A stretch of 57,002 bases of DNA from IMG/VR virus record IMGVR_UViG_3300018080_000211, positions 1 to 57,002 of that record; one strand, 5' to 3'. The stretch comes from a virus (lineage: Duplodnaviria > Caudoviricetes). A program made the position numbers and the translations under genes. A model generated the notes under the pieces. The model searched no databases. It was not told where the DNA came from and saw only the letters and a program-made list of their open reading frames with translations. How positions within the stretch are numbered: position 1 is the stretch's first letter; every line of letters starts with the position of its first letter. Positions 31,398 to 56,443 of this stretch are shown here, in pieces.

Positions 31398-33566
31398 TCA
31401 CTCGTTGTCCTCTTCGTCAGTGTCGTCATCCCAGTCGGTGTCATTTGACTCGGTGTCATCCTCGTCATCCTCGACCTGCTGGTGCTTGCCCTCATCGATG
31501 TCTGACTCAACCTGCTCCTTCAAGCGCTCGAGGTCATCCATCAGGTCATCCATCTCTGGTGGGTCAGGATAATCAACCTCAACGCCATCTCCTGCCTCGT
31601 GGAGTATTGTCTTCATCGCTGAAAGGAAGTCAGGAGTGAAGCCACGCCTGTGGGGTTCAACCGTGTGGCTCTTCGCACCTGCTGCCTTGGCCAAGCAATC
31701 CTTCTCGGTGAACACTGGGAAGGTGTCCTGCTCCCACGCTGACTCGTCATCCTCGAGGAGTGCGCTTGGGTCGGTCATCAGCTTGGCGACATGTGGCTGT
31801 GTGCGTCCATCTGCCTCGATGTCCCTGTATCTGAAGTCAAGCTCTCCCTCGAGCGCATCATTGACCGCTTCCCGCAGCTCGATGTCCACTGGGTTGAAGT
31901 TGGCTTCCTGCCACCTCTTGAACTCATCGAGCTTCGACTGTCTGTATTCACCTCGTGCCCTGATTTCTGCCATGTTCTCGTTGTGCTCTGCGTTTGGCTC
32001 TTCCAACTCTTGGCGCTCCCTCTCGTTGATGTCGCTGACTCGCTCGTTGTGGCGCTCCCACGCTGCCTCGATTTCGCTGAACTGCTCCTCGCAAGCTGTG
32101 TGGATGTCATCATTGATGTCCGAGCGCTCCTGTTCCAGCGCTGCAATCTCTGCCTCAATCTCGGTCAGGCGCACATCGTGGCCTTGCTCCTCTTTGTAGG
32201 CATCGATAATCTCCTGCTGGTCATCCTCTTCATCCTGCGCTGTGTCGTTTGACTCATCACGCTCTTCCTCATAGCGCTCTTGGATTGGGTCAATGATTTC
32301 GTGCCACCTGCTCCTCTCTGCCTCTCGCTCCTCTTCGGTCTTGGTGTTGAACCAAGCTTCCAACTCGTCAGCCTGACTCAAGAAGGCTTCGATGATTGGC
32401 TTCAACCAGTCCTCTTTATGATGCTCGAAAATCTCCTCAACGACTTCCTTGCCGACCTTGGCGAAGATGCGCATGATTTCAGGTATCATAATCAAGCTCT
32501 CGTCAGAAGTGGCTCTGATGATTTTCAGAAGCTCCTCGAGTATGTTGCGCTCGATGACAGACATTGGGAAGGCATCCAACTCGACCTTTGCCCTGTAGCG
32601 CTGGCCACCCTCTGTCTTATACAAGCCACCGTTTGTCTGCTCGCAGAAGTATGCCCACTTGGTGTCCTCTGCCTTGCGTGCCCTCTCGTTGCTGGCTCCA
32701 ACATCTTCGCACTTCATCGCTTTGTGCCTCAAGATATTCTCGGTGATTTGCTCTGGCCTCACGAACAAGCGCCTTATCCTGACAGAAGCGCAGCTGCCGT
32801 AATACTCGAGTGCCTTCTCAATCTGGTTCTTGAAGCTCTCTTGGATGTAGTATCCAGCTGGGTCAAGGTCGCTGATTGTGCACATGTAGATGTCCTGATT
32901 GATGTCCACACCAGCTTCCTGAAGCTCCTCGACCAGCTGCTTGGCATAGCTCCTCGACACGCTCCTTGAAGGCTGGCCACCTGCGGTGATGAGAGTCGAG
33001 TTAAACAGTTCAGGTATCCACTCGAATGCCTCAAACAGATTTTCCTTCTCAACCGCTATCAGCAGGTTGGAAAATGGGCTGTCCCTGATGAAACTCCTGC
33101 GCACATTCTCTTTGGCGCTGACGATGTTCATACCTTCGTATGTCACAAGGCCAGAGTCCACGAGATTTGCCCAAGCAGTGTTTATCGCTCCTGCCACTGA
33201 ACTTGTCTCACCCATCCGCAGAACATCTTCCACAAGGAATTTTATGTGGGTGTACCAGAAGTGCCTCACATTGCCTTCCTCGAGAGTTGTGCCCTCATCC
33301 CTGTAGGCTTCCCATATGACCGCTCTCATAACATCGAGCAGACAGAAATCCAAGCCAGCTCTCCTGCCGTTTGCATCTGGGGGGAACACCTCACAGATTT
33401 CCTCATAAGTCATTCCTTCGCTGACAACCTCGATGTCGAGCTGCTGTCCATCCTCGCTCTCGATGACCTCGCATATCGTGGTTATCTGCTTGTCACATTC
33501 AATCAAGTTGAACCTCTTGATTGAGCCCTTGTATTCATATTCGATTTTCCGTGTTCTTATTTCCAT
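31398..33566 (-). CDS. Topo VI-A/Spo11-like TOPRIM protein with a long acidic coiled coil
   Basis: VRHFWY, IAVEK, GGQPS, ISDLDPAGYYI and VELDA motifs; E/R-rich heptads in the C-terminal half. Confidence 0.7.
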   Translation of the reverse strand: MEIRTRKIEYEYKGSIKRFNLIECDKQITTICEVIESEDGQQLDIEVVSEGMTYEEICEVFPPDANGRRAGLDFCLLDVMRAVIWEAYRDEGTTLEEGNVRHFWYTHIKFLVEDVLRMGETSSVAGAINTAWANLVDSGLVTYEGMNIVSAKENVRRSFIRDSPFSNLLIAVEKENLFEAFEWIPELFNSTLITAGGQPSRSVSRSYAKQLVEELQEAGVDINQDIYMCTISDLDPAGYYIQESFKNQIEKALEYYGSCASVRIRRLFVRPEQITENILRHKAMKCEDVGASNERARKAEDTKWAYFCEQTNGGLYKTEGGQRYRAKVELDAFPMSVIERNILEELLKIIRATSDESLIMIPEIMRIFAKVGKEVVEEIFEHHKEDWLKPIIEAFLSQADELEAWFNTKTEEEREAERSRWHEIIDPIQERYEEERDESNDTAQDEEDDQQEIIDAYKEEQGHDVRLTEIEAEIAALEQERSDINDDIHTACEEQFSEIEAAWERHNERVSDINERERQELEEPNAEHNENMAEIRARGEYRQSKLDEFKRWQEANFNPVDIELREAVNDALEGELDFRYRDIEADGRTQPHVAKLMTDPSALLEDDESAWEQDTFPVFTEKDCLAKAAGAKSHTVEPHRRGFTPDFLSAMKTILHEAGDGVEVDYPDPPEMDDLMDDLERLKEQVESDIDEGKHQQVEDDEDDTESNDTDWDDDTDEEDNE

Positions 33567-33654: not shown

Positions 33655-34647
33655 TCAACCCAAGTGTTTGAGCAGAGAATTTGACCGCTTCACGATGGCC
33701 TTTGTTGCCTTGATTTTCTTGCTTGTGCCCATAACCTTCCTTGGCTTCACTTCGACCTTCCGCTTTTGCGCTCTCGCTTTGAATTCTCCCTTTGGCCTTC
33801 TGACTTCACCTCTGTGTCGCTGAAGCTCCATAACGGCAAAGGCATGAGCCCACAATCGATAGTTGCCTGTCTGCTTTGCAACCGTGAGCCAAACATCGAC
33901 ATCACGCAATATATGATGAATTTTATTTTGATACACAAATCTTAAAAGCTCCTCTGGAGCTATCTTCAACCGCTCTGAACCAACCTCTCCTCGCAACATC
34001 GCTCCAATCAGCTCGAGCTTGTTGCCCTCTTTGTCATCTGCGAATGCTTCCCCATATGCGTCAAAGAAGAGATTGTTCAACAAATCTCGGAAGCTCTCGC
34101 TTGACTCCACAACCTTCTTTAAATCCCATGGCTCAATGCCTTCCTCTTCAATGATTTCCTTCGCCAATGAAAGCTTTTGCATGTCTGTCGGTTTTTTCAT
34201 CTCGAGCTTGAGCGAAATCTTCTGAAGGTCAAGGATGATTTTGTCCATGTCATTGACCAGCAATATCATTGGTTGTTTCAGGAGCTTTGCCTTGGACACG
34301 AGGAGCTGCTGGGCGCTCTTCGTGAGGTTGTCTGCTTCGTCAAGTATCGTGAGGCGCTTCTTTTTGTCGAGTCCAGCCACACCAGTGAACTGTATCGCTC
34401 TCTTGATTTGTCCCACATTCCGCTCATCGCTTGCGTTCAGCTCGGTGATGGCGCAATCGAAATCAGCAGCAAGACAATGGGAGAGTGTCGTTTTGCCAAT
34501 TCCAGACCTTCCATGGAGTATTAGGATGGGCAGCGGTGCTCGACCTTTCCAGTGCATTTCCATCCACCTCTTCGCAGCGCTCACGATGTTGCGATTGCCG
34601 ATGAAATCCTTCAGTGATTTCGGTCGATACATCTCTGTCCAAATCAT
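33655..34647 (-). CDS. rfcL: Replication factor C large subunit-like clamp loader
   Basis: WTEMYRP, GRSGIGKTT, ELNASDER, ILDEADNL; basic tail. Confidence 0.85.
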   Translation of the reverse strand: MIWTEMYRPKSLKDFIGNRNIVSAAKRWMEMHWKGRAPLPILILHGRSGIGKTTLSHCLAADFDCAITELNASDERNVGQIKRAIQFTGVAGLDKKKRLTILDEADNLTKSAQQLLVSKAKLLKQPMILLVNDMDKIILDLQKISLKLEMKKPTDMQKLSLAKEIIEEEGIEPWDLKKVVESSESFRDLLNNLFFDAYGEAFADDKEGNKLELIGAMLRGEVGSERLKIAPEELLRFVYQNKIHHILRDVDVWLTVAKQTGNYRLWAHAFAVMELQRHRGEVRRPKGEFKARAQKRKVEVKPRKVMGTSKKIKATKAIVKRSNSLLKHLG

Positions 34648-37052
34648 CCTCGCTTCACCCCTATCTTGCCTGTGTCGAGGTATGCTGTGAGATTGGATTG
34701 TTTCAGGCCTGTCATAATCTCCTCGATACTCATGCCGAGCGCTTCGAGGATTGGCTCACTTGGGAGCACAATATGCCTTCTGACATTGTTCGGAATATCG
34801 AAGATGACACCGAAGCCTATTGGGTCATCATCCCAATCAAGTGCAACAACATCGGTCTTGGGTTTGCCTTCCACTGTCCCGAGATACACCCAGAAGCTAT
34901 CCCCACGCTTGTAATTCTTGCCGAGATAGGTGTTGCTGTAATTGGGCGCTCTGACCTGTGGCACATCAGTCTTGTATTCCTTTCGCCACGACATCGGGAT
35001 TGCCAATTTTTGTGGGTTTATGGTGGCTTCCTCGATGGATTGGATGGCCTTCTTTATCAGAGGTCGCACCTTCTCGACCTTCCCTTCAACGATGAGTTGG
35101 AAGAGCTTCTTTTGAAGCGCCTTTGTAAGCCTGCTGCTGTCCCTTCGTTTTGAGTGCGCTCCCTTGATTATCATCCGCTTCTCGATTGGGACATCACGCA
35201 CATCTTGTCCATCCCAAATCGGCACTTGGATGTATCGCTTTTTTCTGCCCCATTGAAACACGACCTCATTGATTGTTTCGAGCTTGATTTCAAAGTGGTG
35301 GCTCTCCGCATTCAATCTGCCAGCAAGCTTCTGGAAGGATTTGTTGATGTGTTTGACGGTCTTGTCGCATGCTCTCTTCAACTTGTCAAGCTCCCAATCT
35401 TCAGAGTCTGGGAATGTGAACAGAATTCCATCGGTGTCGCCATACCAGACTTTGAAGCCAGAGCGCTCGAGGATACCAATCACCCAAGCAATCATCATCC
35501 TGACAGTGCCTGTAATATCACTGCCGACCTTCCCTGCGTTGAGTCGGAAGTAATCGCTGCCCATTACACCATAGAGAGAGTTGGTGAAGAATTTGAGCAC
35601 CTCTTGTTCATCCTTCAACTCTGTATATTCATCGCTGTTGTATTCACAAGCGTGCATCCGCTCCCTTAATTGATAGCGCTCGTCAACGAGCTGGTCATAA
35701 ATTATTGGCACCAATCCTCGTGGCTTTTTGGAATAGCAGCGCCCACTCGGTGCAACGAAGTAATCGCCATCAGGCTTCGGAGATTTGACATATGTTTCCT
35801 GCGAATAATTCCCTGTTCTGACAGCGTTTGGATATGCTGTCTTCAAGTCCAAATAAATAGCCTTCCGAATGAGTCCAGTGAAGGCTTCTCCAACCCACCC
35901 ACCTTTGTCAATGCCTTTGCCCTGCTCGAGTGAGGCAACTGTTGGCAGCACGAGATAGCTATGACATTTGTGAAGGAAGTATGCGTCAGCCAATTTGCTG
36001 TTCTGGGCAAACACCTCAATCGAGCTTCCACACTTCTGGCACAAACCGATGAAGAAGCCTGTCAGATTTTTCTTGTCTATGAGTCGGTCAACCAACTCCA
36101 AATCTTTGATGTTGTAAATGAGGAGCTTTGCCATGTCTGTCCTGTACAACTCACTGATTGTCGTGCGCTCGACCTTCCCCTCACCAAGCTCCTGTTGTGA
36201 CACATAATCGAGGTGAAGGTCATCTGGCGTGCCAACATATCGTTTGACATACATCGCAAGCGTGTCCATCCGTGCGAAGTCATCCCAATTTGGACAGGTG
36301 AACTTCCTGCTCGGAGTCTTGGCACGCTCTCGCAGATAGTCGAGGTCATAATTGATGTTCCAATTCGTGATAATGTCAGGTGGATTCAATTGGAAGTATT
36401 GAGTGATAGCCATGAACAACCGCTTCTCATCCTTGTAGCTCCTCAATTTGATTTTGGCATTCGGATATGCTGCCTTGATTTTGTCATAGTCCACCTTGCT
36501 TCCTTCGGTGAACAGAATGGTGTAGGTGTTGCTGGCTTTATCCCATATTCCGACCACCAGCACTTCAGCGGTCGGATACTTGGGCAGAGCGAGTCCAAGC
36601 TCATCCTCATTCTCGATGTCCACAATGGCGATGTTCGGTGGTATCGGTTTGCAGTCCAAAGGTTTAATGTCCTTCGGATAAATCACCTCACGGTCTGGCA
36701 CTTCGATTGTGTGCCAAATCCCATGGTCATATCTCACCCTATCCTCATACAAAATATCAGCCTCATAGGTGATGGGATACTTGTTGCGGATACTCGGCAC
36801 ATTGAATGGAAAATCGACATACACCTTCAACAGTGGATTGTTATCAATGTCCACTCCCTCTTCGACTATCTCGGTGATGCAATTATCGTTTGGAAGCTTC
36901 TTTGTCTTTGGAATGTACAAATATGGTCGAGTGCCCTTGAGCACCTTGTGTACACGCTTCCCATCCTCTCCTCGACCGAAGAGATGAACCAGAAGCTCTC
37001 CCTTGACTTCATAGCGGATTTTGTAGATGGTGCACTTCATGCTTGCACCCAC
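34644..37052 (-). CDS. polB: Family B DNA polymerase
   Basis: ExoI DIE, ExoII NWNINYD, ExoIII YNIKD; DLKTAYP, KFFTNSLYG, YGDTDG, KKRY; C-terminal QSNLTAYL. Confidence 0.96.
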   Translation of the reverse strand: MGASMKCTIYKIRYEVKGELLVHLFGRGEDGKRVHKVLKGTRPYLYIPKTKKLPNDNCITEIVEEGVDIDNNPLLKVYVDFPFNVPSIRNKYPITYEADILYEDRVRYDHGIWHTIEVPDREVIYPKDIKPLDCKPIPPNIAIVDIENEDELGLALPKYPTAEVLVVGIWDKASNTYTILFTEGSKVDYDKIKAAYPNAKIKLRSYKDEKRLFMAITQYFQLNPPDIITNWNINYDLDYLRERAKTPSRKFTCPNWDDFARMDTLAMYVKRYVGTPDDLHLDYVSQQELGEGKVERTTISELYRTDMAKLLIYNIKDLELVDRLIDKKNLTGFFIGLCQKCGSSIEVFAQNSKLADAYFLHKCHSYLVLPTVASLEQGKGIDKGGWVGEAFTGLIRKAIYLDLKTAYPNAVRTGNYSQETYVKSPKPDGDYFVAPSGRCYSKKPRGLVPIIYDQLVDERYQLRERMHACEYNSDEYTELKDEQEVLKFFTNSLYGVMGSDYFRLNAGKVGSDITGTVRMMIAWVIGILERSGFKVWYGDTDGILFTFPDSEDWELDKLKRACDKTVKHINKSFQKLAGRLNAESHHFEIKLETINEVVFQWGRKKRYIQVPIWDGQDVRDVPIEKRMIIKGAHSKRRDSSRLTKALQKKLFQLIVEGKVEKVRPLIKKAIQSIEEATINPQKLAIPMSWRKEYKTDVPQVRAPNYSNTYLGKNYKRGDSFWVYLGTVEGKPKTDVVALDWDDDPIGFGVIFDIPNNVRRHIVLPSEPILEALGMSIEEIMTGLKQSNLTAYLDTGKIGVKRG

Positions 37053-37116
37053 GAGGCAGAATGGAGCGAGGTGTGAACTTGGAAAAATTCACGGCCATTC
37101 CCCTCGAGGTTTGTGC

Positions 37117-38115
37117 TCATGATTTGCTCGACTTCTCTGCCAACCAAGCAAAGAAGCACTTGAGTTGGAAGAGTGGGTTGCTTCCAACTATGATATAGTG
37201 CTCGGTTTGAGCCATGCGAATGATGATTTTCACTTTGGAGCTTCGAGGGATTTTTTCAGAGCGCTTGACCACATCAAAGGTCTTGCTCAATATATCCTGT
37301 ACACTGAAGCCATTCCAGTACAAATCGTCAATGATTTTGAAAGCACGCTCGACCTCTCCCTTGCCACAAGCCTTTAACAGCTGCTCTATCTGGCCATAAT
37401 CCACGAAATCGACAAGGCTTTGTATATCGCTGACCTCTATTACATTTGGCTGAAGGGACATCGTATAAAGCAAATTAATGGCCTTCCGCAGTGAGCCTTC
37501 CGATACTGCGGCAAGATAGCTTCGTGCGTCAGGCTTCATCTCAATTCCTTCTCCCTTCTCGATGGTGGCGATTGCCGACCTTATGTCATTCAATTCGAGC
37601 TGGTGAAATCGAAACACCTGACATCTATTTTGGATGGGTGATATAATTTTATTTGAATTATTTACACTCAATATAAATCGGCAGGTCTTGGCATATTGTT
37701 CCATTGGCCTTCGGAGAGCAGCTTGTGCGTCAGGTGTCAGGTTGTCTGCTTCATCGAGGAAGATGAGGTTGAACACCTTCCCGAGCTTTGAGTGAGGCAA
37801 TCGGGCACTGGTCGCAAACTTCTTTATCTTTGTGCGCACGACATCGATGCCACGCTCATCCGATGCGTTCAGCTCAATCCAATTGTTTTTCCACTCGCTT
37901 CCGAAGGCATCCCTTGAGAATGCTTCTGCGCAAGTTGTCTTCCCTATTCCTGCATCACCGACAAAGATGAGGTGTGGCATATTCCTGTCGCCATCCTGTA
38001 TGGCCTTGACCATATGTTTCAGCCTGCTGACTATGTGGTCTTGTCCAATCACCTCATCCAAGCTTTTTGGCCTGTACTTTTCAATCCATGGTAGATTTTC
38101 ATCTCTCATTTTCAC
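37117..38115 (-). CDS. rfcS: Replication factor C small subunit
   Basis: PWIEKYRP, GDAGIGKTT, ELNASDERGIDVVR, DEAD, AQAALRR, QNRC. Confidence 0.95.
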   Translation of the reverse strand: MKMRDENLPWIEKYRPKSLDEVIGQDHIVSRLKHMVKAIQDGDRNMPHLIFVGDAGIGKTTCAEAFSRDAFGSEWKNNWIELNASDERGIDVVRTKIKKFATSARLPHSKLGKVFNLIFLDEADNLTPDAQAALRRPMEQYAKTCRFILSVNNSNKIISPIQNRCQVFRFHQLELNDIRSAIATIEKGEGIEMKPDARSYLAAVSEGSLRKAINLLYTMSLQPNVIEVSDIQSLVDFVDYGQIEQLLKACGKGEVERAFKIIDDLYWNGFSVQDILSKTFDVVKRSEKIPRSSKVKIIIRMAQTEHYIIVGSNPLFQLKCFFAWLAEKSSKS

Positions 38116-38154
38116 ACCTCGCCTGAATACATTATCGACTCCTCAATACTTAAA

Positions 38155-38418
38155 TCATTCTGATGTAGTGATTACAAGATACTCTGCCCTCAACATTGTG
38201 TTATTCCTGACTCGATAAAACACGCTCTCCTCAAGCTCAAGATATGTTCCAAGCTTCGATAAGCCTGTTGTCTTTGGTCGGCAGCTCCCGCAGGTCTGAT
38301 GTTCCACGAGGATTTCACCCTCAACGAGCACCAGCACTGACGGTGCTTTTGTCTTGTTCTTTGAACTCATCTGTTGCGCAAACAATCCGACCTTCTCAAC
38401 GCTTAATCCGAATGCCAT
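38155..38418 (-). CDS. Hypothetical protein (likely start MAFGLSV)
   Basis: TGATG overlap with the PLP-enzyme gene stop. Confidence 0.5.
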   Translation of the reverse strand: MAFGLSVEKVGLFAQQMSSKNKTKAPSVLVLVEGEILVEHQTCGSCRPKTTGLSKLGTYLELEESVFYRVRNNTMLRAEYLVITTSE

Positions 38419-39419
38419 CAAATCACTCCTCTGGATTTGAGATATTTCACCATCTCTTCCTCTGTTGTGTGTCCATCTCCCATCAGGCCATCTCCCATGC
38501 CAAGCTTTGGCGACCATTCGCCACCCACATTCCAGAAGTGAACAGGTGGCTCGAGGTCGTCAAGGTGGTCTATCATCCAACTGAAAGCCTTGGCATCAAT
38601 GAATTGGTCGCAAGGGAAGTTTGGCCTGTACAGAGCTTTGTCGTTGTAGCTGTATCCATCGTCAACAATTTCAAATGTCCACTTCCTATCCGAGCGCATC
38701 AATGGGCTGTTCCTGACATTAATCATCTTCCGAGCATCCGTGAGTATCTTGTCGTGGCGCTTCTTGAAATTGTGAATCAATACACCTTTGACATCGATTG
38801 ATATGTTGTTCTCCATTATACCTGCGAGCAATCCCGAGAGGATAGTGCCACTGGACACAACCATCACAAGAGTGCCATTGGTGTCGAGTTTATCCTTGAC
38901 CGCTTCGATGAGCTTCATATGTTCGGTCTTGCTTTCGTTGAGTCGAAGGCCAACAGGCAGATAGCGATAGTTGTCCACACCCTTCCTTCGCAGCCAATCC
39001 TTTGCCCAACCTTGAACAATCCTTTGGTGGTGTCCTCGAAGCTCCACCCCTGTGCTGCCGAATGACTTCATCATCTTCCTGTAAAAGTCATCGTGCCCTG
39101 TTGGATAAAATCCATAGTGCTTCATATCGAATTGCTCGGCAAAGTATCCGACTCCCCAACCAACACGAGCAATGATTGTGTCTTGGCTCACGACCGTTTT
39201 GACTCCCTCTTCCTGAAGCTTCTCGAAGTATGGCACGATGCCTCTGACCTTTGAGAAGTTGGGCATGGGGAATGGGAATGGCAAATCATCTCGGACAACA
39301 GTGAATTCCTTCCCTTCCTCTGTCCTGTAATCCTCGAGGGTGGGCATGTCCAATCCGTGTAGCTTGCCTTGGAGCTTCCTGCTGTCCCTCAATTCCAGCT
39401 CGATGTCCTGCCGTTTCAA
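38418..39419 (-). CDS. Fold-type II PLP-dependent enzyme
   Basis: VVRDDL...FSKVRG (candidate PLP Lys), VSSGTILSGL phosphate loop, DAKA, HFWNVG. Confidence 0.75.
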   Translation of the reverse strand: MKRQDIELELRDSRKLQGKLHGLDMPTLEDYRTEEGKEFTVVRDDLPFPFPMPNFSKVRGIVPYFEKLQEEGVKTVVSQDTIIARVGWGVGYFAEQFDMKHYGFYPTGHDDFYRKMMKSFGSTGVELRGHHQRIVQGWAKDWLRRKGVDNYRYLPVGLRLNESKTEHMKLIEAVKDKLDTNGTLVMVVSSGTILSGLLAGIMENNISIDVKGVLIHNFKKRHDKILTDARKMINVRNSPLMRSDRKWTFEIVDDGYSYNDKALYRPNFPCDQFIDAKAFSWMIDHLDDLEPPVHFWNVGGEWSPKLGMGDGLMGDGHTTEEEMVKYLKSRGVI

Positions 39420-40189
39420 TCCACATCACCTACCAAGATTGCGACCGCATTGTCCAATTGCTTTCTGTTCAGGCCAAGCTCTCGCATGAGCTTCTTGTTT
39501 GGCTTCTCAAAGAGGTTGAGGAGCGCCTGATTTACCTCACCGACACTGCCATATTTTTCCAGAAGCTTCTCTGCGGTCTTGTCGCCAATAAATGGATAGC
39601 TCAAGAGCACTCTCATTGCTCGGTCTTTGTGTGTTGCTGTCGGTCGAGTCGCAACAACCTCGCTCCTGTCTTTGCTATCCCTTGCCTTGTAGTACATTCT
39701 CACAATCAACTCGGCAGCTTCTCTCCTGTCTGAACAGAAGATTGGGGGAAATCCTCGAAGGCTACAACTGGCTATCGCTCCAAACAACCGCAGCTTCCTT
39801 CGGTTGTATTCCGCTATCTTTTGAGCGCTCGTCAATCGTGGCTTGTAAAACACCTTCTTTTTGATGTCCTTGAACACTTCGGTGATAGGCTTATCGACCA
39901 AGAAAAATGCGTGAGGATATTGGGACAATTCTTGGAGCTTCGCAAACAGGTTGCCATTCTCGATTTCATCCCACAAATCTTCGCTCTTCCGCTCGACCGC
40001 AAACCCAAACTTTGGGTCAGCATAATCTCCGACCTCGAGCTGAACCACTTTGGCCTTTGAGCCAATGTCAATACTCCCAGCCTTGTCCAGTGATATTTTT
40101 TCATTTGCGTCAGGTGCAAACTTCTGGAGCGCTCCCTTCACCAACCTCTTCATCATGTCGTGTTCTCTGTTGTCAATCAATAATGTCAT
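39416..40189 (-). CDS. ERCC4/XPF-family endonuclease with HhH
   Basis: IDNRE, LEVGDY, VERKS; HhH PFIGDKTAEKLLEKYGS. Confidence 0.88.
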   Translation of the reverse strand: MTLLIDNREHDMMKRLVKGALQKFAPDANEKISLDKAGSIDIGSKAKVVQLEVGDYADPKFGFAVERKSEDLWDEIENGNLFAKLQELSQYPHAFFLVDKPITEVFKDIKKKVFYKPRLTSAQKIAEYNRRKLRLFGAIASCSLRGFPPIFCSDRREAAELIVRMYYKARDSKDRSEVVATRPTATHKDRAMRVLLSYPFIGDKTAEKLLEKYGSVGEVNQALLNLFEKPNKKLMRELGLNRKQLDNAVAILVGDVD

Positions 40190-40190
40190 T

Positions 40191-41312
40191 TTACCATCCT
40201 CTGAATTTGGGGCAGGCTTCTCCAACGCACAGCCCATGTTCATTCTTAATCTTCCCACATGTGTCGTGTTTATATTCTGGCACATGGAAATAAATATGTT
40301 TGATTTGATAAATCCTTCTCGAGCGGAACATTCTGTCAACCCATCTAAATGTCTCACTCATCTTCTCGAATAGCTCGACCACTTGGCCAAAGCTGTATCC
40401 GATTTCCTTGAGCTGAATCACCGTCATTCTCCGAGTTGGATGAGTTGGATTGCGGCTGAACAGGTCGTTGTGTACACACATTCGAGGAATGAGCGCTTTG
40501 ATAAGCTCGTGGAAGTCATCGTCAGGCACGGATGAATATTCACGAGTGGACACAATCCGCTCTCCCTCGATAAGCTCTTTGTCTGCCGCATACTCGAGTA
40601 TGTCAATGCCAAACTTCTCGATGAGGTCATCCAAATCCAGCTTCGCTTCGGGCAAATTAGGGATAAAAAGTGTGGGGGCACGAGCATTTTCTATGATTTC
40701 GTAAATGGAGTTGTCCACGACCTCTTCAGCCTTGACAGGACAACAGAATGTATCCCCAATCAAATATTGCTTGTGCTTCTCCTCTCTCGCATATCTCGAC
40801 ATTGGGACACGGCACAATCTTCTTGGCTCTTTACACATGCCATCCATCGTGCGAAGCTCGAGCTTGTCCTTGAGCCAATTGTGAACCGCTCGAGTCTTTG
40901 CCTTCAGCTCTTCATCGTACAGGTGAACAGAAGGCTTCAATCGAATGAAATGGTGGAAGCCTTTTGAACCAGAGAATGAATTGATAAATGGCAAGCCTTC
41001 CTTCTGACAAAACTCGATAAGCTTGATGGTGTCGAGTTGCGCATTTTCAGGCTTCTCTTTGTCATCAAAATCGGTGAACAGATTTCCCACTCTCACGCTC
41101 TTGACAGATGGCGGATGAAATCTTTGGTCAAGCTCGGGATAGCTGTTGTGAGAAGTGAAGCAGATAGCTCGACCAGTGTTTGCTTTGAACCACCTCGCAA
41201 ACTCTTCCCGATTGTACACTGGGGTTTGAATTGGGTCGCCAACCATTCGAGGAAAATCCATGAAGCCATAGGCATCCCATAGCTTGTACAAATCTCCGAG
41301 CTTGGCTTTCAT
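40191..41312 (-). CDS. Archaeo-eukaryotic primase: PriS catalytic domain fused to a PriL-like Fe-S domain
   Basis: DFD, FSGSKGFH, D...RLCRVP; C-terminal C...H..R...YQIKHI...TCGKI...LC...C. Confidence 0.85.
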   Translation of the reverse strand: MKAKLGDLYKLWDAYGFMDFPRMVGDPIQTPVYNREEFARWFKANTGRAICFTSHNSYPELDQRFHPPSVKSVRVGNLFTDFDDKEKPENAQLDTIKLIEFCQKEGLPFINSFSGSKGFHHFIRLKPSVHLYDEELKAKTRAVHNWLKDKLELRTMDGMCKEPRRLCRVPMSRYAREEKHKQYLIGDTFCCPVKAEEVVDNSIYEIIENARAPTLFIPNLPEAKLDLDDLIEKFGIDILEYAADKELIEGERIVSTREYSSVPDDDFHELIKALIPRMCVHNDLFSRNPTHPTRRMTVIQLKEIGYSFGQVVELFEKMSETFRWVDRMFRSRRIYQIKHIYFHVPEYKHDTCGKIKNEHGLCVGEACPKFRGW

Positions 41313-42124
41313 CCTTCCCACTCCAATGAATAGACAGGCAGGATTGCCTCTGGTGCAAACTTCCTCTTGAGCTGCGCCAAGCCTTCACTGTCGAGGTCGC
41401 TGCCGTCATTAACGAAAGGGAAGCCTATGTCAAGCACTTGTCGGTGGAAATCCCATCTGACATAATCGACCAAATACTTGATGGTGTGAACCGATTTGGA
41501 GATGAGGAAGGACACGGTGGAATAGGACAGTGGAGCGCCCACATTAAAAGCCACCATTTCGCCATCCAGCCAGTATCCCCTATGGTATAGGTTGAATTGG
41601 GTCATATTCTTGAGGATTTTGGTGTTATATGCGATGTCGTCAAATTCATCGGATTGGCTGTGATACTTCTCGCAAAGCTCAATCGCTCTCGGAAGGTCGG
41701 ACAATGATAATGGTTTCACCTCAAGCTCCAGACCGAAGTTGCGCACATTGTTGCGAAGCTTCTTGAGTTTGCCACCATGCAATCCCACGACCTTCTCGGT
41801 GCTGTTGATGTAATTATTATCGATTTGTTCAATATTAAAACCTTGGAATACAAGTGGATGTATTTTTGTTGATATATTATGTGGAGCAAATAAAATCTCA
41901 AGCTCACCAAAGGTCTTGTAGTGGCGCTGAAGAGCTTCATCGATGCGACCTTTCAGGATTGGTGGGACAAGCAGCAAGCCTTCCTCGTTGGTCAAGCGCC
42001 ACCCATCGAAGTTGATGTCATAGTCTTGACAACACCAAAGCTCTGGTGAGCTGTACCAAAAGTCAAGCTCCGCTTCCTTGAGTGCAGCAGATAGCTGCTT
42101 GTAGATTTCCACCGTGAGTTTCAT
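41309..42124 (-). CDS. DUF2156 (LPG synthase C-terminal / Fem-like) aminoacyl-tRNA-dependent transferase-like protein
   Basis: LHGGKLKKLRNNVRNF; DGEMVAF; VNDGSDLDSEGLAQLKRKFAP. Confidence 0.7.
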   Translation of the reverse strand: MKLTVEIYKQLSAALKEAELDFWYSSPELWCCQDYDINFDGWRLTNEEGLLLVPPILKGRIDEALQRHYKTFGELEILFAPHNISTKIHPLVFQGFNIEQIDNNYINSTEKVVGLHGGKLKKLRNNVRNFGLELEVKPLSLSDLPRAIELCEKYHSQSDEFDDIAYNTKILKNMTQFNLYHRGYWLDGEMVAFNVGAPLSYSTVSFLISKSVHTIKYLVDYVRWDFHRQVLDIGFPFVNDGSDLDSEGLAQLKRKFAPEAILPVYSLEWEG

Positions 42125-42125
42125 C

Positions 42126-42218
42126 TCACTCTTCCTTTCTGCTCTTCTTGCCCGATAGGGTGAGTGGTCTGTGTGCTCGAGATTTCTTCAGACCACCCTT
42201 GCTCGATTTTCCACCCAT
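42126..42218 (-). CDS. 30-aa basic Gly/Ser/Lys-rich peptide (not in ORF track)
   Basis: MGGKSSKGGLKKSRAHRPLTLSGKKSRKEE; GAGGGAG upstream; fills the gap between genes. Confidence 0.45.
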   Translation of the reverse strand: MGGKSSKGGLKKSRAHRPLTLSGKKSRKEE

Positions 42219-42219
42219 G

Positions 42220-42360
42220 TTAATTCGCTCCCTCGATTTTGACGGTGATGTGCGCTCCGCATCGAGTGCAACCACCGCTCTTCTCTGTTGTTCCTTCGTG
42301 AAGCTCCTGTGACAATCTGTTCCAGAGCTTCCTTGCTGTCTTCATGCAACAGGTATTCAC
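42220..42360 (-). CDS. Small Cys-containing protein (not in ORF track)
   Basis: VNTCCMKTARKLW...GCTRCGAHI. Confidence 0.5.
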   Translation of the reverse strand: MNTCCMKTARKLWNRLSQELHEGTTEKSGGCTRCGAHITVKIEGAN

Positions 42361-42364
42361 TCGC

Positions 42365-43081
42365 TCACCGCTTGTACTTCATTGGGCTTATGATAACCTT
42401 TGCTGTCAGGCTTCCCATCAGGATTTGACCGAAGATTTTGCCACCATCTTCCTCGATGGATAGGTCAATCACCGACTCATCCGTCAGTATAGGCAAGCTC
42501 TTGAACTCGATGGTTGGCACGATTGTCTCAACCTCTTCGACCTCTTCTGATTGCGTGTGAGCAAGAAGGCCACCGCTCGATTTCAGTGGCACTTCGTTGG
42601 TGAAGATTTCATCCCCTGTCGTTGTCATCTGCTCAAACACAACTCTATCTTCGTTGCGCATGACCTTCAGGATATGGATGCCATCGTCAATCACCTCGAA
42701 GGCTTTGACAGGAAGCTTGAATGAATTATCCATCTTCCAGAATTTGTCGATTGCCTTCTTGCCCTTCTCGAACAGGTTGCCACACGATGGGACATTGACC
42801 TTTTTGTTGATGCCCTTCCGCTTCCACTTGAAGTCAATATCCTTCTCGTGTCCATCGATAGTGAGTGGAGAGTTTGCGTCAGGGAAGAGGTGGCTTTTGA
42901 ATGCCACTTCCTCGTCAAACTCCTTGTTCTCCAACAGCACTATAATCGAGTGCATGTCATTGGCGAGAAGCATACCACCCTCGCCAATTGATATGTTCGC
43001 TCCTGTCTTGCTGCCCTTGTTTATCTTGTCCCCAAAATCGCACATGCGAGTTAAGTGGGGAAATATCTTGTCTATTTTCAT
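42365..43081 (-). CDS. Divergent sliding-clamp (PCNA)-like protein
   Basis: 238 aa with clamp-like alpha/beta periodicity; ends AKVIISP; replisome context. Confidence 0.4.
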   Translation of the reverse strand: MKIDKIFPHLTRMCDFGDKINKGSKTGANISIGEGGMLLANDMHSIIVLLENKEFDEEVAFKSHLFPDANSPLTIDGHEKDIDFKWKRKGINKKVNVPSCGNLFEKGKKAIDKFWKMDNSFKLPVKAFEVIDDGIHILKVMRNEDRVVFEQMTTTGDEIFTNEVPLKSSGGLLAHTQSEEVEEVETIVPTIEFKSLPILTDESVIDLSIEEDGGKIFGQILMGSLTAKVIISPMKYKR

Positions 43082-44532
43082 TTGCTATACACCTCTGCAA
43101 GTCTTTCATAATCTCTTCTCAATCTCTCTTCTTTGTAGTCGTACACTATGCCCTTGTCATCATATCCGACCGCTCTCACTCCACCGCACCAATCCATCGC
43201 CCATGGGCTGTACTTCAGCTTGTTCCATATGACATAGCTGTTCATAAAGATTTCACGGTTGAGGCTTTCAGCCTTCCTCTCAAGAATGTCTGCCCAACCG
43301 ACTCTTCCACCGCTCTTGACTATTTCACGAGCGAGGGACAGAGTGTTGAAGGTATTAAATCCTGCATCCTTGAAGTAATCCCCTACACCGCAACAAATGT
43401 CATCGCTGTTGTATGGGATTGTGTGGAAGTTGAAAGTGCTATGACCTATGCCAGCATCCTGCAATTTGAACCCAAGCTTCTCGAGGAAGAGTGAGCCAAC
43501 CAATTGCCATTCTGAAGTAGCACGAAACATCTGGTCATAATCGAAGCCTTGAATGTAGAAATTTTCACGGATGCCCGCATTGTGAGCATAGTAGTGGTAT
43601 GTGTCTGATGTCACATGTGGCGCTCCTGCCTCGAGGCAGGCATCCACATACTGCGGCAAGTGCTCTTCAGTGATGTTGATATAGGCCATTGATGGTTCAA
43701 TTCTCGGGATAGCTCTGATGCCGACTTCGTTGAGCTGCTTCACTAATTTGAAGCGCTCGGTCGAGGATGGTGCAGCCATCTCAATCTTCCTCGCAATCTT
43801 ATCATCCACATGAGTTATCGTCACATGGACAGCGATGTTCTTGCCCATCTCGCAAATCTGCTTGAACCACTCTCCCTCTCCGAGCAAAACCGACTTGGTG
43901 TTTATCATCATCGGATAGTCGTGGTCATGGATTGTTTTGAGTGCTGTTAAAGCCACCTTCTTTTGCTTCTCGACTGGGATAAAATCTTCAGTCCTAATAC
44001 CCAGCCTGATTGGTATCCTTCGCTCTATGGCCTTCTTCAACTCACCCTTACAATTGCCTGCCAGTATCTTCTCCAGCTCGTTGGTCACATATTCCTTCGA
44101 GGAAGCTCTGACCTTGGCAAGCTCCCAGTTGTCATAGAATGCCGCATACAAGCTCTGTTCAAAGAGCTTTGCGAAGCAATAGATGCACTGGAAGCAAAGG
44201 CCACCACTGTACACATCCATGTTCAGTGGCATTGGGCACTCACTCGCTCGGCAGCTGACTTCAAGCATTGAACCGTAATCGCTTGGAAGCTCTCGCTTCT
44301 GTTCCTTCCATTCCTCTTCGAGAAGGTCGAAGGTTGCCTGAAGCTCTGCTCTCTTGTGTCGCTCGATTGACCTCAAGTCAGGCTTATCTTTGGCGTGCAT
44401 TGTCGGGAATAGTGGTTGTTTTGCTGGCATGATTTTGTTGATGTCGATTGACTCGATTTGTTCTTTGACTATGTCCCTTGTTTTGTCACCGACAAACCCT
44501 TTCACCCTGCTTTCAATTGTCATTTGTTTCAC
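43078..44532 (-). CDS. Radical SAM protein (SPL-like), B
   Basis: CPMPLNMDVYSGGLCFQCIYCF; INTKS; IE..APSSTERF; PRIEP; C-terminal CCG. Confidence 0.8.
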   Translation of the reverse strand: MKQMTIESRVKGFVGDKTRDIVKEQIESIDINKIMPAKQPLFPTMHAKDKPDLRSIERHKRAELQATFDLLEEEWKEQKRELPSDYGSMLEVSCRASECPMPLNMDVYSGGLCFQCIYCFAKLFEQSLYAAFYDNWELAKVRASSKEYVTNELEKILAGNCKGELKKAIERRIPIRLGIRTEDFIPVEKQKKVALTALKTIHDHDYPMMINTKSVLLGEGEWFKQICEMGKNIAVHVTITHVDDKIARKIEMAAPSSTERFKLVKQLNEVGIRAIPRIEPSMAYINITEEHLPQYVDACLEAGAPHVTSDTYHYYAHNAGIRENFYIQGFDYDQMFRATSEWQLVGSLFLEKLGFKLQDAGIGHSTFNFHTIPYNSDDICCGVGDYFKDAGFNTFNTLSLAREIVKSGGRVGWADILERKAESLNREIFMNSYVIWNKLKYSPWAMDWCGGVRAVGYDDKGIVYDYKEERLRRDYERLAEVYSK

Positions 44533-44533
44533 C

Positions 44534-45781
44534 TCATAGATGTGCCAACAAGTCTGGCTTCGACTTCCTGCGCTTCCAGATTACCATCCCATCGCTATCC
44601 TCACCAGCTGCGTCAATATAAAAGTTGTCATATAAATCTCGCATGCCGTACATTTTTTCATCCACCTCATTCCACAATCGCTTCATGAGTTGATAATCCT
44701 TTTTGTTGTACAGAACTGGCGAAGCTTCCACCATGTCCTTCCAGCGCACTTCACCCTTCTCTTTGAGAACAGCGCAAGCGTGTCGGAATGTGAACTTGTT
44801 GAAGCCATCTGGCCATATCAGGTCGATGCCGCAACAACTCTCACACGCACTGTCGTATGGCATATTGACCCAATCAGCGCTCGAGGTCGGAATGCCATAT
44901 GACTTGAACAACTTCATTATCCTTTGTGCGTTGGGCTTCCATGGTTCATCCGCATTGGCCTTCCACATTCGCTCGAAGTCAAACCCTGCCTTCTCGAATT
45001 TGACTTTGGCCATTGGCCTTCTGGAGCTGTGATAATTGTAGAATGTAATGTGTTGGCAACCGCTCTCAACCGCTTCCTCTGCATATGCCCGCAGCTCCTC
45101 TTCACTGTCATTGATTGTTGGCATTACTGGTTCATGTTTTACAGCAGCCCATATACCACTGTCATTCAAGGTCTTGATGGCCTTCCATCTGGCCTTCGGT
45201 GTAGGTGCTTTTGGCTCGAGCTTCCTGATTTTTTCAGGTGTCCCTGCTATGATGGATATGACTGGAGCTGCTTTCATCTCCGAGATTACATCAAAGTATG
45301 GCGATTTTGCTGGAAGGTCTGATTTGACGAGTAGTAGAACGGGGTGGTCATAATCCTTGAATAGATTAAGGATTTTCAGTGTTATCTCCTGCTCTCGCTC
45401 GATTGGTAGCATGAATGGTTCAGAGCGCACGCCAAGACCGAAGGCAATGCCCATCCGCAGACCGAGTGCTATTTTGTTCTTGGTCTGCTTCTCGGAATAG
45501 GCAAGTGCGAGCATCTTCTCATACTGCTTCAAATCAGCTGGGCGCACCGTGTTGGGAGTCCAGTTGTCATAGTAGGCAGGGAAGATAGTGCTTTCAAGCT
45601 CTCGACAGAAACAGAAGGTGCAGTGGATACTACACCCATGATAACTGTCGCCACCGAGCGCTTGGGGGCACACATGCTGGTCGCCACGAATGAACATGGG
45701 CTGCTTGAACTTCTCGGGAAGCTCTCGCTTGTTGCCATCGGTCTGGCGCTGGAAGTAAAAGTCAAACTCTTTGTCAGGCAT
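44534..45781 (-). CDS. Radical SAM protein (SPL-like), A
   Basis: DSYHGCSIHCTFCFC (CxxxCxxC); SEPF; LEPKAPTPKARW; SCCG. Confidence 0.85.
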   Translation of the reverse strand: MPDKEFDFYFQRQTDGNKRELPEKFKQPMFIRGDQHVCPQALGGDSYHGCSIHCTFCFCRELESTIFPAYYDNWTPNTVRPADLKQYEKMLALAYSEKQTKNKIALGLRMGIAFGLGVRSEPFMLPIEREQEITLKILNLFKDYDHPVLLLVKSDLPAKSPYFDVISEMKAAPVISIIAGTPEKIRKLEPKAPTPKARWKAIKTLNDSGIWAAVKHEPVMPTINDSEEELRAYAEEAVESGCQHITFYNYHSSRRPMAKVKFEKAGFDFERMWKANADEPWKPNAQRIMKLFKSYGIPTSSADWVNMPYDSACESCCGIDLIWPDGFNKFTFRHACAVLKEKGEVRWKDMVEASPVLYNKKDYQLMKRLWNEVDEKMYGMRDLYDNFYIDAAGEDSDGMVIWKRRKSKPDLLAHL

Positions 45782-46701
45782 TAGTCCTCACCAAGCTCAA
45801 GGTCATCGTCATCGTCATCCTCTTCGCTCTCTTCCTCGACCTCTTCAGCTTCCTCGCTTCCTTCCTCGCTTTCTGACTCGTCATCATCCTCTTCTTCAGC
45901 TTCCTCTTCTTCACGCTCACGCTCTGCTTGCACCTCATCGTATTGAGCAACGAGATAACCAACTGTCAGGTTGTCCCCTTCCTTCAGTATCCAGATGGGA
46001 TGCTCTATGTCTTGACCGTACAAGGATATGCTTCCAGAAAGCACCGACATCACTTCAGCGAAGTTGCTGCCAAGGATTATCTCAAATCCCTTCTTGACCT
46101 TTGCATCGAGCGGTCGAGCTATTCCTGTTGCATGCGCTTCCATCGAGCCAATCAGTGCAAGGCTTCCCTTTTTGTTGAAGGTCAACCTGACAACCTTGAT
46201 TTCCTTCTGGCCATACACAAGCGTTGTCGGTGATAGGATTGCGTTGATTTCACTGGCCTTGATTTTGACCTCGCTCCATTCCATCTCGCCAAGCACTGGC
46301 AGGTTGTCCTTGACCTTCAACTGTGAGGCATCTTCAATCCTCGCAGCGTCAGCATCGCTGGGGGTGAGTTGAGCTTCATACTTATCACCCTTCAAGTGCA
46401 CGGTCGTGCCTCTGTGTTGGATGGTAATCTCCTCATCATCACCAAAGAGCTTATTGACCCAATCGACAAGCTCTGCGTCAATGACATATTGACCGCTCTT
46501 GCCCGTGAGCTTCAGCTTCTCCGCTTTGCCCCAAGTGAATGCTGTATGGTCGCTGGTAATCCATGACCAAGCAATCGACTTCTTTTTTATGTTCACTTCA
46601 GCTATCAGCGGTGAGAACAGTGCTGAACCACCGCTCTCTCTGGCAGTCATCTTGCTGATAAGACCTGCCACCGCTCCTGCTTTGCCTTTCAATTCAAACA
46701 T
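45781..46701 (-). CDS. PCNA-like sliding clamp with an acidic tail
   Basis: About 250-aa clamp-like core ending PIWI...VGYLVA; RFC and PolB in the same operon. Confidence 0.7.
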   Translation of the reverse strand: MFELKGKAGAVAGLISKMTARESGGSALFSPLIAEVNIKKKSIAWSWITSDHTAFTWGKAEKLKLTGKSGQYVIDAELVDWVNKLFGDDEEITIQHRGTTVHLKGDKYEAQLTPSDADAARIEDASQLKVKDNLPVLGEMEWSEVKIKASEINAILSPTTLVYGQKEIKVVRLTFNKKGSLALIGSMEAHATGIARPLDAKVKKGFEIILGSNFAEVMSVLSGSISLYGQDIEHPIWILKEGDNLTVGYLVAQYDEVQAEREREEEEAEEEDDDESESEEGSEEAEEVEEESEEDDDDDDLELGED

Positions 46702-46713
46702 TTTTTCACCTCA

Positions 46714-47730
46714 TTACAAATCTCCAAGTTCAATCTCTTCTTCATCGTCATCGCTGTCTTGCTGCTTCTCTGGTGCTCCCTTTGGCTTCTCTGCGCTCTT
46801 CGACTTCTTGCCCTTGTACTTCTGCAACCAACTGAAGCTCGGCATCTTAACGCCACGCTTCTTGGTGTCCTTCTTGAGCATCTCACCATACTTCTCGAGG
46901 AAGGCTGTGAAGCTCTTCTCGGGAAGCACGAGCTTTGTGAAGTTGTGCGTCAAGCTCCGAAGCTTCCTGCTGTCTGCGAACCATTTGCCTTTGTCATAGT
47001 ACAGGCGCAGGATAAAGTCCACTCTCGCATCATTGCCCTTCTGACCAGCTGCCACGACCTTCTCGACTTCCATATCACCCTCTTGAAATTTGCGAGTCGT
47101 TGGGTGAGCTGTCCATAGTAGATTGTACTCACCTCGAGCTGCTTTGTTTGCAAGCTCATTGTGTAGTGGGTTGATGTTTCGATAGTCCAGCATTTGGTCG
47201 AGCGCTGGAAGAGTCTTTTTGCCTCGTGCATAAGCTTCCTCTTGGCGCTCCATCAGGAGCTGAACATATGGTATGCGATAGGTTGCTTCAACATAATCTC
47301 GCTGACAGAAATACCAGACACTGCCCATGTTCTCTATGACCAGCCAGCCATCCATTCCTGTTTCAGCTTTATGCTCAATCAGGCGCTGGTCAAAGATTTT
47401 GAAAGCATCATAGACCTGCCAGATGTCATCGCACTTCGCATACTGTATGCACTCCTGATACTCGAGAGGAATGATTTGAGAGAAGAGGAGAGGTGCAACA
47501 CCTTCCTTGTCGCAGTCAATGAAGCAGAGCAGGATTTTATCGAGAGGTATGCCCATCACCTCGTGCATGTGAGTGATTAGTTGTAGGATGAAGTTTGATT
47601 TGCCTGACCCAGCCATTCCTTCGAGCTGGATGCGAAGCACATTGAAATCCTTCCCTTTATCCGCTCCTGACACGATGTTCACGCATGACTTCCCTGCCAT
47701 GCTCTTCTTCAATGAATCAGCGATTGACAT
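46714..47730 (-). CDS. RecA-fold P-loop ATPase (AAA_24/Sak4-like)
   Basis: GMAGSGKS, FIDCD, LVIE, WTAH; next to an SSB-like gene. Confidence 0.7.
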   Translation of the reverse strand: MSIADSLKKSMAGKSCVNIVSGADKGKDFNVLRIQLEGMAGSGKSNFILQLITHMHEVMGIPLDKILLCFIDCDKEGVAPLLFSQIIPLEYQECIQYAKCDDIWQVYDAFKIFDQRLIEHKAETGMDGWLVIENMGSVWYFCQRDYVEATYRIPYVQLLMERQEEAYARGKKTLPALDQMLDYRNINPLHNELANKAARGEYNLLWTAHPTTRKFQEGDMEVEKVVAAGQKGNDARVDFILRLYYDKGKWFADSRKLRSLTHNFTKLVLPEKSFTAFLEKYGEMLKKDTKKRGVKMPSFSWLQKYKGKKSKSAEKPKGAPEKQQDSDDDEEEIELGDL

Positions 47731-56167: not shown

Positions 56168-56443
56168 ATGAGCGAGAGTGTGATGAATGGCAATTGGCTG
56201 CTGGAGAAGGCTATGAGCGAGATGTTTGACGAGGGAGAGCTTGAGTGCCCACGATGTCATCAGCACGAGGTCGAGGTGGATGACCTTGGCGACCTGTTGG
56301 TGTGTATCTGTCAGGTGTGCGGATGGATGTGGGTTGAGGATGAGGAAGAGGTTGAGCAATCACTGGCTCCAGTGTTCAGACAAAAAGACCTGATGGGTTG
56401 GAAGCCTGTGGGTGAGTTGTATGGCATGCTGTCCCACTTGTAA
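56168..56443 (+). CDS. Zn-ribbon protein
   Basis: CPRC...CQVCG. Confidence 0.55.
   Translation: MSESVMNGNWLLEKAMSEMFDEGELECPRCHQHEVEVDDLGDLLVCICQVCGWMWVEDEEEVEQSLAPVFRQKDLMGWKPVGELYGMLSHL

Follow-up and report, generated by a model that had tools for sequence, protein, structure and literature searches.

The DNA analysed here (the window) is the whole 57,002-bp IMG/VR virus record IMGVR_UViG_3300018080_000211 (Duplodnaviria; Caudoviricetes), which carries direct terminal repeats and is of the archaeal tailed type. Its replication module encodes a family B DNA polymerase (PolB; 34644-37052, minus strand, Pfam), an AAA+ protein resembling the large subunit of replication factor C (RFC-L; 33655-34647, minus strand, Pfam AAA, RuvB_N and Rad17) and a SplB/PA0069-like radical S-adenosylmethionine (SAM) enzyme with a CxxxCxxC motif (rSAM A; 44534-45781, minus strand, PF04055, phrog_13321 and NF033668). 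Alignments of their orthologues show the C-terminal motifs of these three proteins to be genuine and constrained. PolB, RFC-L and rSAM A are best read as clients of a PCNA-type sliding clamp, to which they would bind by C-terminal peptides of the PCNA-interacting protein (PIP) type. On this basis rSAM A probably works on DNA while tethered to such a clamp via its tail, most likely in the repair or processing of a lesion.

Conservation of the C-terminal motifs of PolB, RFC-L and rSAM A

The PIP box is defined as QXXhXXaa in the available part of PMC4929162, and archaeal PIPs are described in that of PMC6881253 as lying at the very C-terminus, with many true PCNA binders breaking the strict definition. 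A sequence-only reading of the window had quoted five strings, all of which are present, and had assigned them to one virus-specific PIP variant, L-[LT]-x-[HY]-L. Such a single variant does not describe the proteins: the PolB box is a canonical Qxx-L-xx-Y-L, whereas RFC-L and rSAM A have a Q-less form, L-L-x-[H/Y/F/W]-hydrophobic, and for the tails of the orthologues the proposed pattern is too narrow. Nor does the PolB box QSNLTAYL (34677-34700, minus strand) end the protein, as had been stated; it occupies residues 785-792 of 802 and is followed by the ten residues DTGKIGVKRG. RFC-L ends in KRSNSLLKHLG, with the PIP-like peptide SNSLLKHL (33661-33684, minus strand) at residues 322-329 of 330, and rSAM A ends in KSKPDLLAHL, of which KPDLLAHL (44537-44560, minus strand) forms residues 408-415 of 415. 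Gln at PIP position 1 is found in PolB (Q785), whose orthologues have Q, K or R; RFC-L has Ser and rSAM A Lys at this position. Two aromatic residues at positions 7 and 8 occur in none of the three proteins (Y-L in PolB, H-L in RFC-L and rSAM A), and FF or WF appears there only in the most distant orthologues.

The demand that the motifs be kept among homologues was borne out for PolB, RFC-L and rSAM A alike. From 61 homologues of rSAM A, 12 close ones that are 53-78% identical to the window protein were aligned (alignment A1). In the tail of this alignment position 4 is hydrophobic in 12/12 sequences, position 5 in 11/12 and position 8 in 11/12, and position 7 is F, Y, W or H in 11/12. The linker that follows the invariant W402-K403 is variable, the commonest residue reaching only 3-6 of 12 sequences in five of its seven columns. 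Pro or Gly stands directly before the motif in 8/12 orthologues (counted by eye), which fits a flexible tail, and the most distant orthologues end in LLSFL, LGDWF or VLSFF, which are classical aromatic PIP ends. For RFC-L, the best 120 of 4510 matches were listed and the top 13 aligned (A2); a fragment of 238 aa was omitted, as were distant RFC/AAA+ proteins of cells (≤37% identity). Positions 4, 5 and 8 are each hydrophobic in 13/13 of these sequences and position 7 is F, Y, W or H in 12/13, while in the 12-column linker from the reference residues K-A-T-K to the motif no residue exceeds 5/13 apart from one Ser-rich column (7/13). Distant RFC-L orthologues end in DLMRFV or NVMDFF. Position 4 is Leu in all three window proteins, in 11/12 sequences of A1 and in 12/13 of A2, and the linkers of the tails are variable and either basic or rich in Gly, Ser and Pro. 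In PolB, [QKR]xx[LM]xxY[LMF] is kept in all five orthologues found with a C-terminal region, and the PolBs of two IMG/VR loci (L008 and L009), only 24% identical, end in the canonical Q-x-x-L-x-x-W-F.

The frequency of the motif was compared with chance in 69 open reading frames (ORFs; 17,936 aa), consisting of 68 non-overlapping ORFs of at least 60 aa and the ERCC4 ORF. L[LT].[HY]L occurs five times, four of these within 12 residues of a C-terminus, one of the four lying in an ORF of uncertain status (2947-3540, plus strand). Shuffled sequences gave a mean of 0.07 C-terminal matches and 0/2000 shuffles reached four, a comparison that is biased because the pattern was derived from the same proteins. 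The generic core [LMI]..[HYWF]L gave eight C-terminal matches in the same set where 1.75 were expected (P ~0.001), and over whole proteins it was not enriched (39 against 32.4 expected, P 0.14). Its further C-terminal matches are in a PALP-like enzyme, a 477-aa protein, an ORF of 91 aa and two more ORFs whose status is doubtful.

Two of these proteins, and one ORF from elsewhere, have tails of note in their own right. The 91-aa ORF (56168-56443, plus strand; tail 56426-56440), which has weak PHROG matches only, ends in GMLSHL, sharing its L-x-H-L with the tails of RFC-L and rSAM A, and could encode a small clamp binder. The 477-aa protein (49211-50644, minus strand; tail 49226-49240) ends in KLKKLPKWLKKAD and has no Pfam, NCBIfam or PHROG match. 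By its Atlas features it lies near clusters in which 10-11% of the members carry DUF3987, which serves as a lead only; KKLPKWLKK is kept in its orthologue in the syntenic contig L001. The protein may be helicase-like and have a clamp-binding tail of its own. An IMG/VR contig that is unrelated but has an RFC-like gene (L006) contains a 104-aa ORF (3753-4067, plus strand) that ends in GRGNLLSHLIGIEP, with a core as in the tails studied here.

Clamp-type tails in bacterial relatives of rSAM A

Beyond the close orthologues, 49 distant homologues of rSAM A (P0013-P0061) were obtained which, where named, are called 'DNA repair photolyase' or PA0069-family proteins; 'DNA repair photolyase' is also the name given by JGI to several rSAM A homologues. 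The motif Q[LM].L[FL] is found within the last 12 residues of 39 of the 49 and Q..L[FLH] in 45, and the strict form occurs nowhere in their remaining 17,682 residues. A second, independent sample consisted of bacterial genome loci (L043-L122), the best 80 of 577 confirmed relatives, all with bacterial record titles. Here the strict motif was present in 39 loci and a hexameric form in one. The other 40 tails, counted by eye, comprised 32 with Q-x-x-L-F, mostly QG.LF, and eight with none, three of which look like frame errors of the script, so that about 72 of the 80 bear a motif.

The consensus of the β-clamp-binding motif is QL(S/D)LF and its canonical form Q-phi-x-[L/M][F/L], with a tolerant position 2 (PMC11139829, available part). 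Judged by their sequence, the bacterial tails fit this canonical form. The available part of the same review contains neither 'photolyase' nor 'radical', and the family is not among the partners it lists. A clamp tether thus looks like a trait of the SplB/PA0069-like family, and the type of tail appears to match the clamp of the lineage, being of the β-clamp type in bacteria and of the PIP type in a virus that encodes PCNA-like and RFC proteins.

A predicted PCNA-fold clamp and a clamp-like protein encoded near rSAM A

The product of 45781-46701 (minus strand), a 306-aa protein whose gene adjoins rSAM A, is a PCNA-fold clamp by structure prediction. At the sequence level it has no Pfam or PHROG match, a search of PDB sequences returned nothing below E 0.1, PCNA_N and PCNA_C did not match, and 0/19 of its aligned relatives match a PCNA family. 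Nineteen relatives were found among 1.8 billion representatives, and the alignment used for modelling (A3) has 19 rows, namely the window protein, 17 of the 19 relatives and the orthologue from contig L001; P0192 and P0204 were left out, their matches being largely confined to the acidic-tailed C-terminal part. The AlphaFold2 (AF2) model built from this alignment has a mean pLDDT of 84.6 and a pTM of 0.79. In a Foldseek search of the PDB with this model, PCNA structures fill the first 46 ranks (E 8e-14, target-normalised TM 0.67-0.75, 10-14% identity), including archaeal PCNA-peptide and PolB-PCNA complexes such as 1rxm and 3a2f, and a bacterial β-clamp first appears at rank 47. The model contains two topologically repeated clamp-fold domains, and residues ~255-306 form a helix followed by a disordered acidic tail. 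By these predictions the 306-aa protein has the PCNA fold. A complex prediction of its residues 1-256 with the last 40 residues of rSAM A scored 0.17 and 0.09, the mark being 0.32, and, run without controls, counts neither way.

A second protein of 238 aa (42365-43081, minus strand) looks clamp-like in one ESM Atlas model (pTM 0.81), in which it falls with Rad9, β-clamp and PCNA clusters at TM 0.69-0.75. It has no Pfam or PHROG match, and the PDB sequence search again gave nothing below E 0.1. AF2, supplied with only three sequences, produced an unusable model (pLDDT 31.4), and no sequence-level relation to the family of the 306-aa clamp was detected when alignment A4 was compared with A3 by hhalign (probability 0.13). 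The string KSSGGLLAHT (42554-42583, minus strand), one of the five quoted at the outset, is internal to this protein (residues 167-176). Its GGLL[AS]H part is kept in 3/3 orthologues, the residues after it being variable, and closely resembles the tails of RFC-L orthologues.

The genes for the 306-aa clamp, rSAM A, its paralogue rSAM B and the 238-aa protein abut or overlap, the clamp gene overlapping the start of rSAM A. This order is kept in four metagenome contigs (L001-L004; L001 is syntenic with the window), as far as each reaches.

A second terminal motif was seen in the same region. Long acidic tails are present on the PCNA-fold clamp (LELGED, 45784-45801), an AAA_24-like protein (IELGDL, 46717-46734) and a protein resembling single-stranded DNA-binding protein (SSB; IDLGED, 47747-47764), all on the minus strand, and the ERCC4 nuclease ends in ILVGDVD (39419-39439, minus strand). 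Acidic ends are kept in the L001 orthologues (IDLGDDDG, IDLGDDDD and ILVGDTDA; the AAA_24-like one ends in ETIEL) and also in the distant clamp relatives P0187, P0189 and P0194. Ends of the LELGED/IDLGED type recall the SSB tails that serve bacteria and phages as acidic hubs.

The radical SAM enzymes A and B

rSAM A belongs to the radical SAM enzymes, with C-S-I-H-C-T-F-C as its CxxxCxxC motif and a PF04055 score of 31 bits against a cut-off of 29.5. rSAM B (43078-44532, minus strand) is a paralogue with 31% identity over ~400 residues (E 4e-51). It has no PF04055 match, contains a CxxCxxC motif (L-C-F-Q-C-I-Y-C) that is kept in the L001 orthologue, and lacks the C-terminal tail motif. Among curated families, both proteins match PA0069, Rv2578c and 'radical SAM mobile pair protein B' best, in each case far below the cut-off; for PA0069 (NF033668) the scores are 64 and 53 bits against a required 360, so that the two are not members of this family and are related to it at the superfamily level. 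rSAM B differs from rSAM A and the bacterial family in having CxxCxxC in place of CxxxCxxC, and it has an N-terminal extension of ~70 residues.

The start of rSAM B, MKQMTIESRV (44503-44532, minus strand), had also been counted among the PIP-like strings. It is present if a GTG start is used; as a PIP it is ruled out, being neither conserved nor PIP-like. The L001-L004 orthologues start with MENIKGFVG, MENNLKGFVG or MKSKLKGFVG, conservation of the N-terminus begins only at KGFVG.KTRD, and position 7 of the string is Arg. Of the two putative modification enzymes, rSAM A has a conserved PIP-type tail by which it might be tethered to the clamp, and rSAM B has none.

Neither rSAM A nor A1 found a related locus in viral contigs, and A1 found none in genome contigs. 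A2 retrieved 35 loci with distant RFC-like genes from viral contigs, none of which has a homologue of rSAM A, rSAM B or the clamps by tblastn. Against isolated phages, tblastn with rSAM A gave three weak matches in unannotated records.

The replication module and its other genes

The plus strand from ~7.5 to 29.4 kb is a tailed-virus morphogenesis module that includes a terminase and a Mu-type portal, and the minus strand from 31.4 to 53 kb is a replication module of archaeal type. In the order of transcription the latter encodes the 477-aa protein, the SSB-like acidic protein, the AAA_24-like protein, the 306-aa clamp, rSAM A, rSAM B, the 238-aa protein, an LPG_synthase_C-like protein, a primase-S-like protein, the ERCC4 nuclease, the PALP-like enzyme, the small subunit of RFC (RFC-S; 37117-38115, minus strand, Rep_fac_C, 2.7e-17), PolB, RFC-L and a topoisomerase-like protein. 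RFC-L has AAA, Rad17 and RuvB_N matches and a conserved tail motif, and lies two genes from RFC-S, with PolB between them; these are features of an RFC large subunit, and one of its orthologues is named 'replication factor C large subunit' by one source. By PolB, the closest isolated viruses are haloarchaeal tailed viruses, at ~27% identity.

Some further genes of the module stand out. The PALP or threonine-dehydratase-like enzyme (38418-39419, minus strand, phrog_7093, 4e-30) lies inside the module and is absent from the syntenic contig L001, in which ERCC4 is directly followed by RFC-S; MVKYL, six residues before its end, is a candidate for a further PIP. The LPG_synthase_C-like protein (41309-42124, minus strand, PF09924, 2e-10), encoded between the 238-aa protein and the primase, comes from a family that one would not expect in a replication module; both L001 and L004 retain it. 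In the 722-aa topoisomerase-like protein (31398-33566, minus strand, phrog_6247, 5e-9), a long coiled region is rich in Glu and Asp, and the end is acidic.

Comparison with known clamp clients and SplB-like enzymes

The archaeal PIP clients PolB, RFC large subunit, Fen1, NucS and NreA resemble the window proteins in their short C-terminal peptides, in which position 4 is hydrophobic and positions 7-8 are aromatic or hydrophobic (PMC4929162 and PMC6881253, available parts). The window PolB fits QxxhxxAA apart from Leu at position 8. Unlike these clients, RFC-L and rSAM A have no Gln and have His at position 7; further differences are that a radical SAM enzyme is among the putative clients and that the clamp, a viral one, is highly diverged. 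No paper combining 'PIP box', 'radical SAM' and 'PCNA' was found in the literature searched.

A link between SplB-like enzymes and PCNA binding exists in archaeal cells, where genes of this type adjoin and sometimes overlap nreB; NreA binds PCNA by a C-terminal PIP that is required for its repair function, a PIP in NreB is called only 'possible', and the substrate of the SplB-like enzymes is stated to be unknown, all according to the available part of PMC4929162. In these pairs the PIP is carried by the neighbouring Nre protein, whereas in the virus it is on the radical SAM enzyme itself, and Pfam found no Nre-like domain. In several bacterial groups SplB (COG1533) is SOS-regulated (PMC8565304 and PMC3765255, available parts), and it is linked to ImuB-C and other repair genes in PMC3765255, in the available part of which the word 'clamp' is absent. 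The bacterial PA0069/SplB-like proteins share with rSAM A the superfamily core (25-32% identity over 44-61% of its length, with NF033668 as the best match) and a clamp-type motif at the extreme C-terminus, but this motif is of the β-clamp type Q-phi-x-L-F and not a PIP. The viral proteins differ from them further in an extra Cys-rich C-terminal half of ~170 residues and in coming as an A/B pair. Spore photoproduct lyase is of the radical SAM type and has DNA as its direct target (PMC4929162 and PMC3765255, available parts), and the viral enzymes resemble it at the superfamily level only.

A parallel in concept is eukaryotic DNMT1, which modifies DNA and is kept at the fork by a PIP that binds PCNA. 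The PIP box of DNMT1 has His at the first aromatic position. DNMT1 differs from the viral enzyme in being a methyltransferase rather than of the radical SAM type and in having its motif inside the chain and not at the C-terminus, and there is no homology; the PIP lies inside a long disordered region (PMC6881253, available part).

Discussion

The tails of PolB, RFC-L and rSAM A would most likely dock in the hydrophobic pocket of a clamp with the PCNA fold, for which the viral 306-aa protein is the first candidate and the 238-aa clamp-like protein or the PCNA of the host are alternatives. Tethered in this way, rSAM A would act on DNA, probably together with its tail-less paralogue rSAM B, and radical-based repair or processing of a lesion seems likelier than the writing of a modification, because the family context, with its SOS regulation, Nre proteins and spore photoproduct lyase, is one of repair. 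We infer the binding of the tails, the choice of clamp, the partnership of A and B and the chemistry.

Several observations weigh against this account. The motifs of RFC-L and rSAM A, without Gln and with His at position 7, fail strict QxxhxxAA, and the pattern was defined post hoc, after inspection of the sequences. The close orthologues, at 42-78% identity, all come from one metagenomic viral lineage and are for this reason not independent. Only ~7 residues separate W402/K403 from the motif of rSAM A, so that the tail could instead pack on the enzyme or on rSAM B; rSAM B itself has no tail motif, all four of its orthologues ending in a conserved sequence of the EVY[SG]K type. The clamp identity of the 238-aa protein comes from a single Atlas model, we infer β-clamp binding by the bacterial tails from the motif alone, and transfer of function from the bacterial family is loose because the viral proteins score far below its cut-off.

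The sequence-only reading had gone on to propose that the tails bind the viral clamp and that the radical SAM pair modifies newly made viral DNA, for example as an escape from host nucleases, possibly together with the neighbouring enzymes of the pyridoxal phosphate (PLP) and LPG-synthase-C types. The replication module does enclose the two genes, with a clamp or clamp-like gene on either side and the PALP-like and LPG_synthase_C-like genes nearby, and phage pathways of thymidine hypermodification employ radical SAM and PLP enzymes that act on replicated DNA. We nevertheless regard modification as unlikely, since the nearest families are SplB/PA0069/Rv2578c-like and treated as repair proteins in the available parts of the papers, no gene resembling a hydroxymethylase or thymidylate synthase was found in the 34 of 69 ORFs scanned with Pfam, the PALP gene is missing from L001 where the radical SAM pair is kept, and the relatives with clamp-type tails are chromosomal genes of ordinary bacteria. 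What these relatives strengthen, by their clamp-type tails, is DNA as the substrate; that the DNA is nascent, and that it is modified, finds no support in a SplB/PA0069-like family.

It could also be that PolB and RFC-L have true PIPs and that the tail of rSAM A is kept for another reason, such as contacting rSAM B, closing the active site or binding a different partner, its likeness to RFC-L being coincidental. The short linker to the folded core would suit this, as would the missing Gln, the His at position 7 and the post hoc definition of a short motif, but the class pattern of the tail equals that of RFC-L orthologues down to the shifts to F, W or Y in distant ones, a clamp-type motif stands at the same terminus of the bacterial relatives, and the Pro or Gly before the motif fits a flexible tail; this reading is on our estimate rather improbable. 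The same small probability is given to the view that the tails are aimed at host PCNA and the viral clamp-fold proteins have other roles, a view which does not exclude the account preferred here. The drift of the PIP pattern towards the general archaeal consensus in distant orthologues and the great divergence of the viral clamps from solved PCNAs would agree with it. The virus, on the other hand, encodes its own RFC-L and RFC-S beside the clamps, so that the tail of RFC-L is expected to fit the clamp that this RFC loads, and the overlap of the 306-aa clamp gene with rSAM A is part of a conserved arrangement.

A broader and more doubtful extension of clamp-tethered repair is that SplB/PA0069-like enzymes ride on clamps in all settings, each lineage fitting the tail to its own clamp. 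Bacteria would use the β-clamp motif, archaeal cells a neighbouring PIP-bearing Nre protein, and the virus a PIP-like tail fused to the enzyme. The virus would then package a clamp-rSAM-rSAM-clamp cassette in which a heteromeric A/B enzyme scans viral DNA on a dedicated clamp, and the 238-aa protein might dock via its internal GGLL[AS]H loop.

Recruitment by PIPs is familiar, with PolB and RFC-L as textbook clamp clients. What appears to be new is that a radical SAM enzyme would be a client, together with the Q-less form with His that is common to RFC-L and rSAM A, the clamp-rSAM-rSAM-clamp cassette, and clamp-type tails in the SplB-like family across domains; no link of radical SAM enzymes to a clamp-binding motif was found in the literature, a search in which subscription journals and supplements were not covered. 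The function of SplB-like proteins (COG1533) apart from spore photoproduct lyase is an open question. If true, lineage-matched clamp tails would place these enzymes on clamp-loaded DNA and open the question to direct tests using peptides and loaded clamps. In virology, the replisome toolkit known for archaeal tailed viruses would gain a radical SAM enzyme and a cassette with two clamps.

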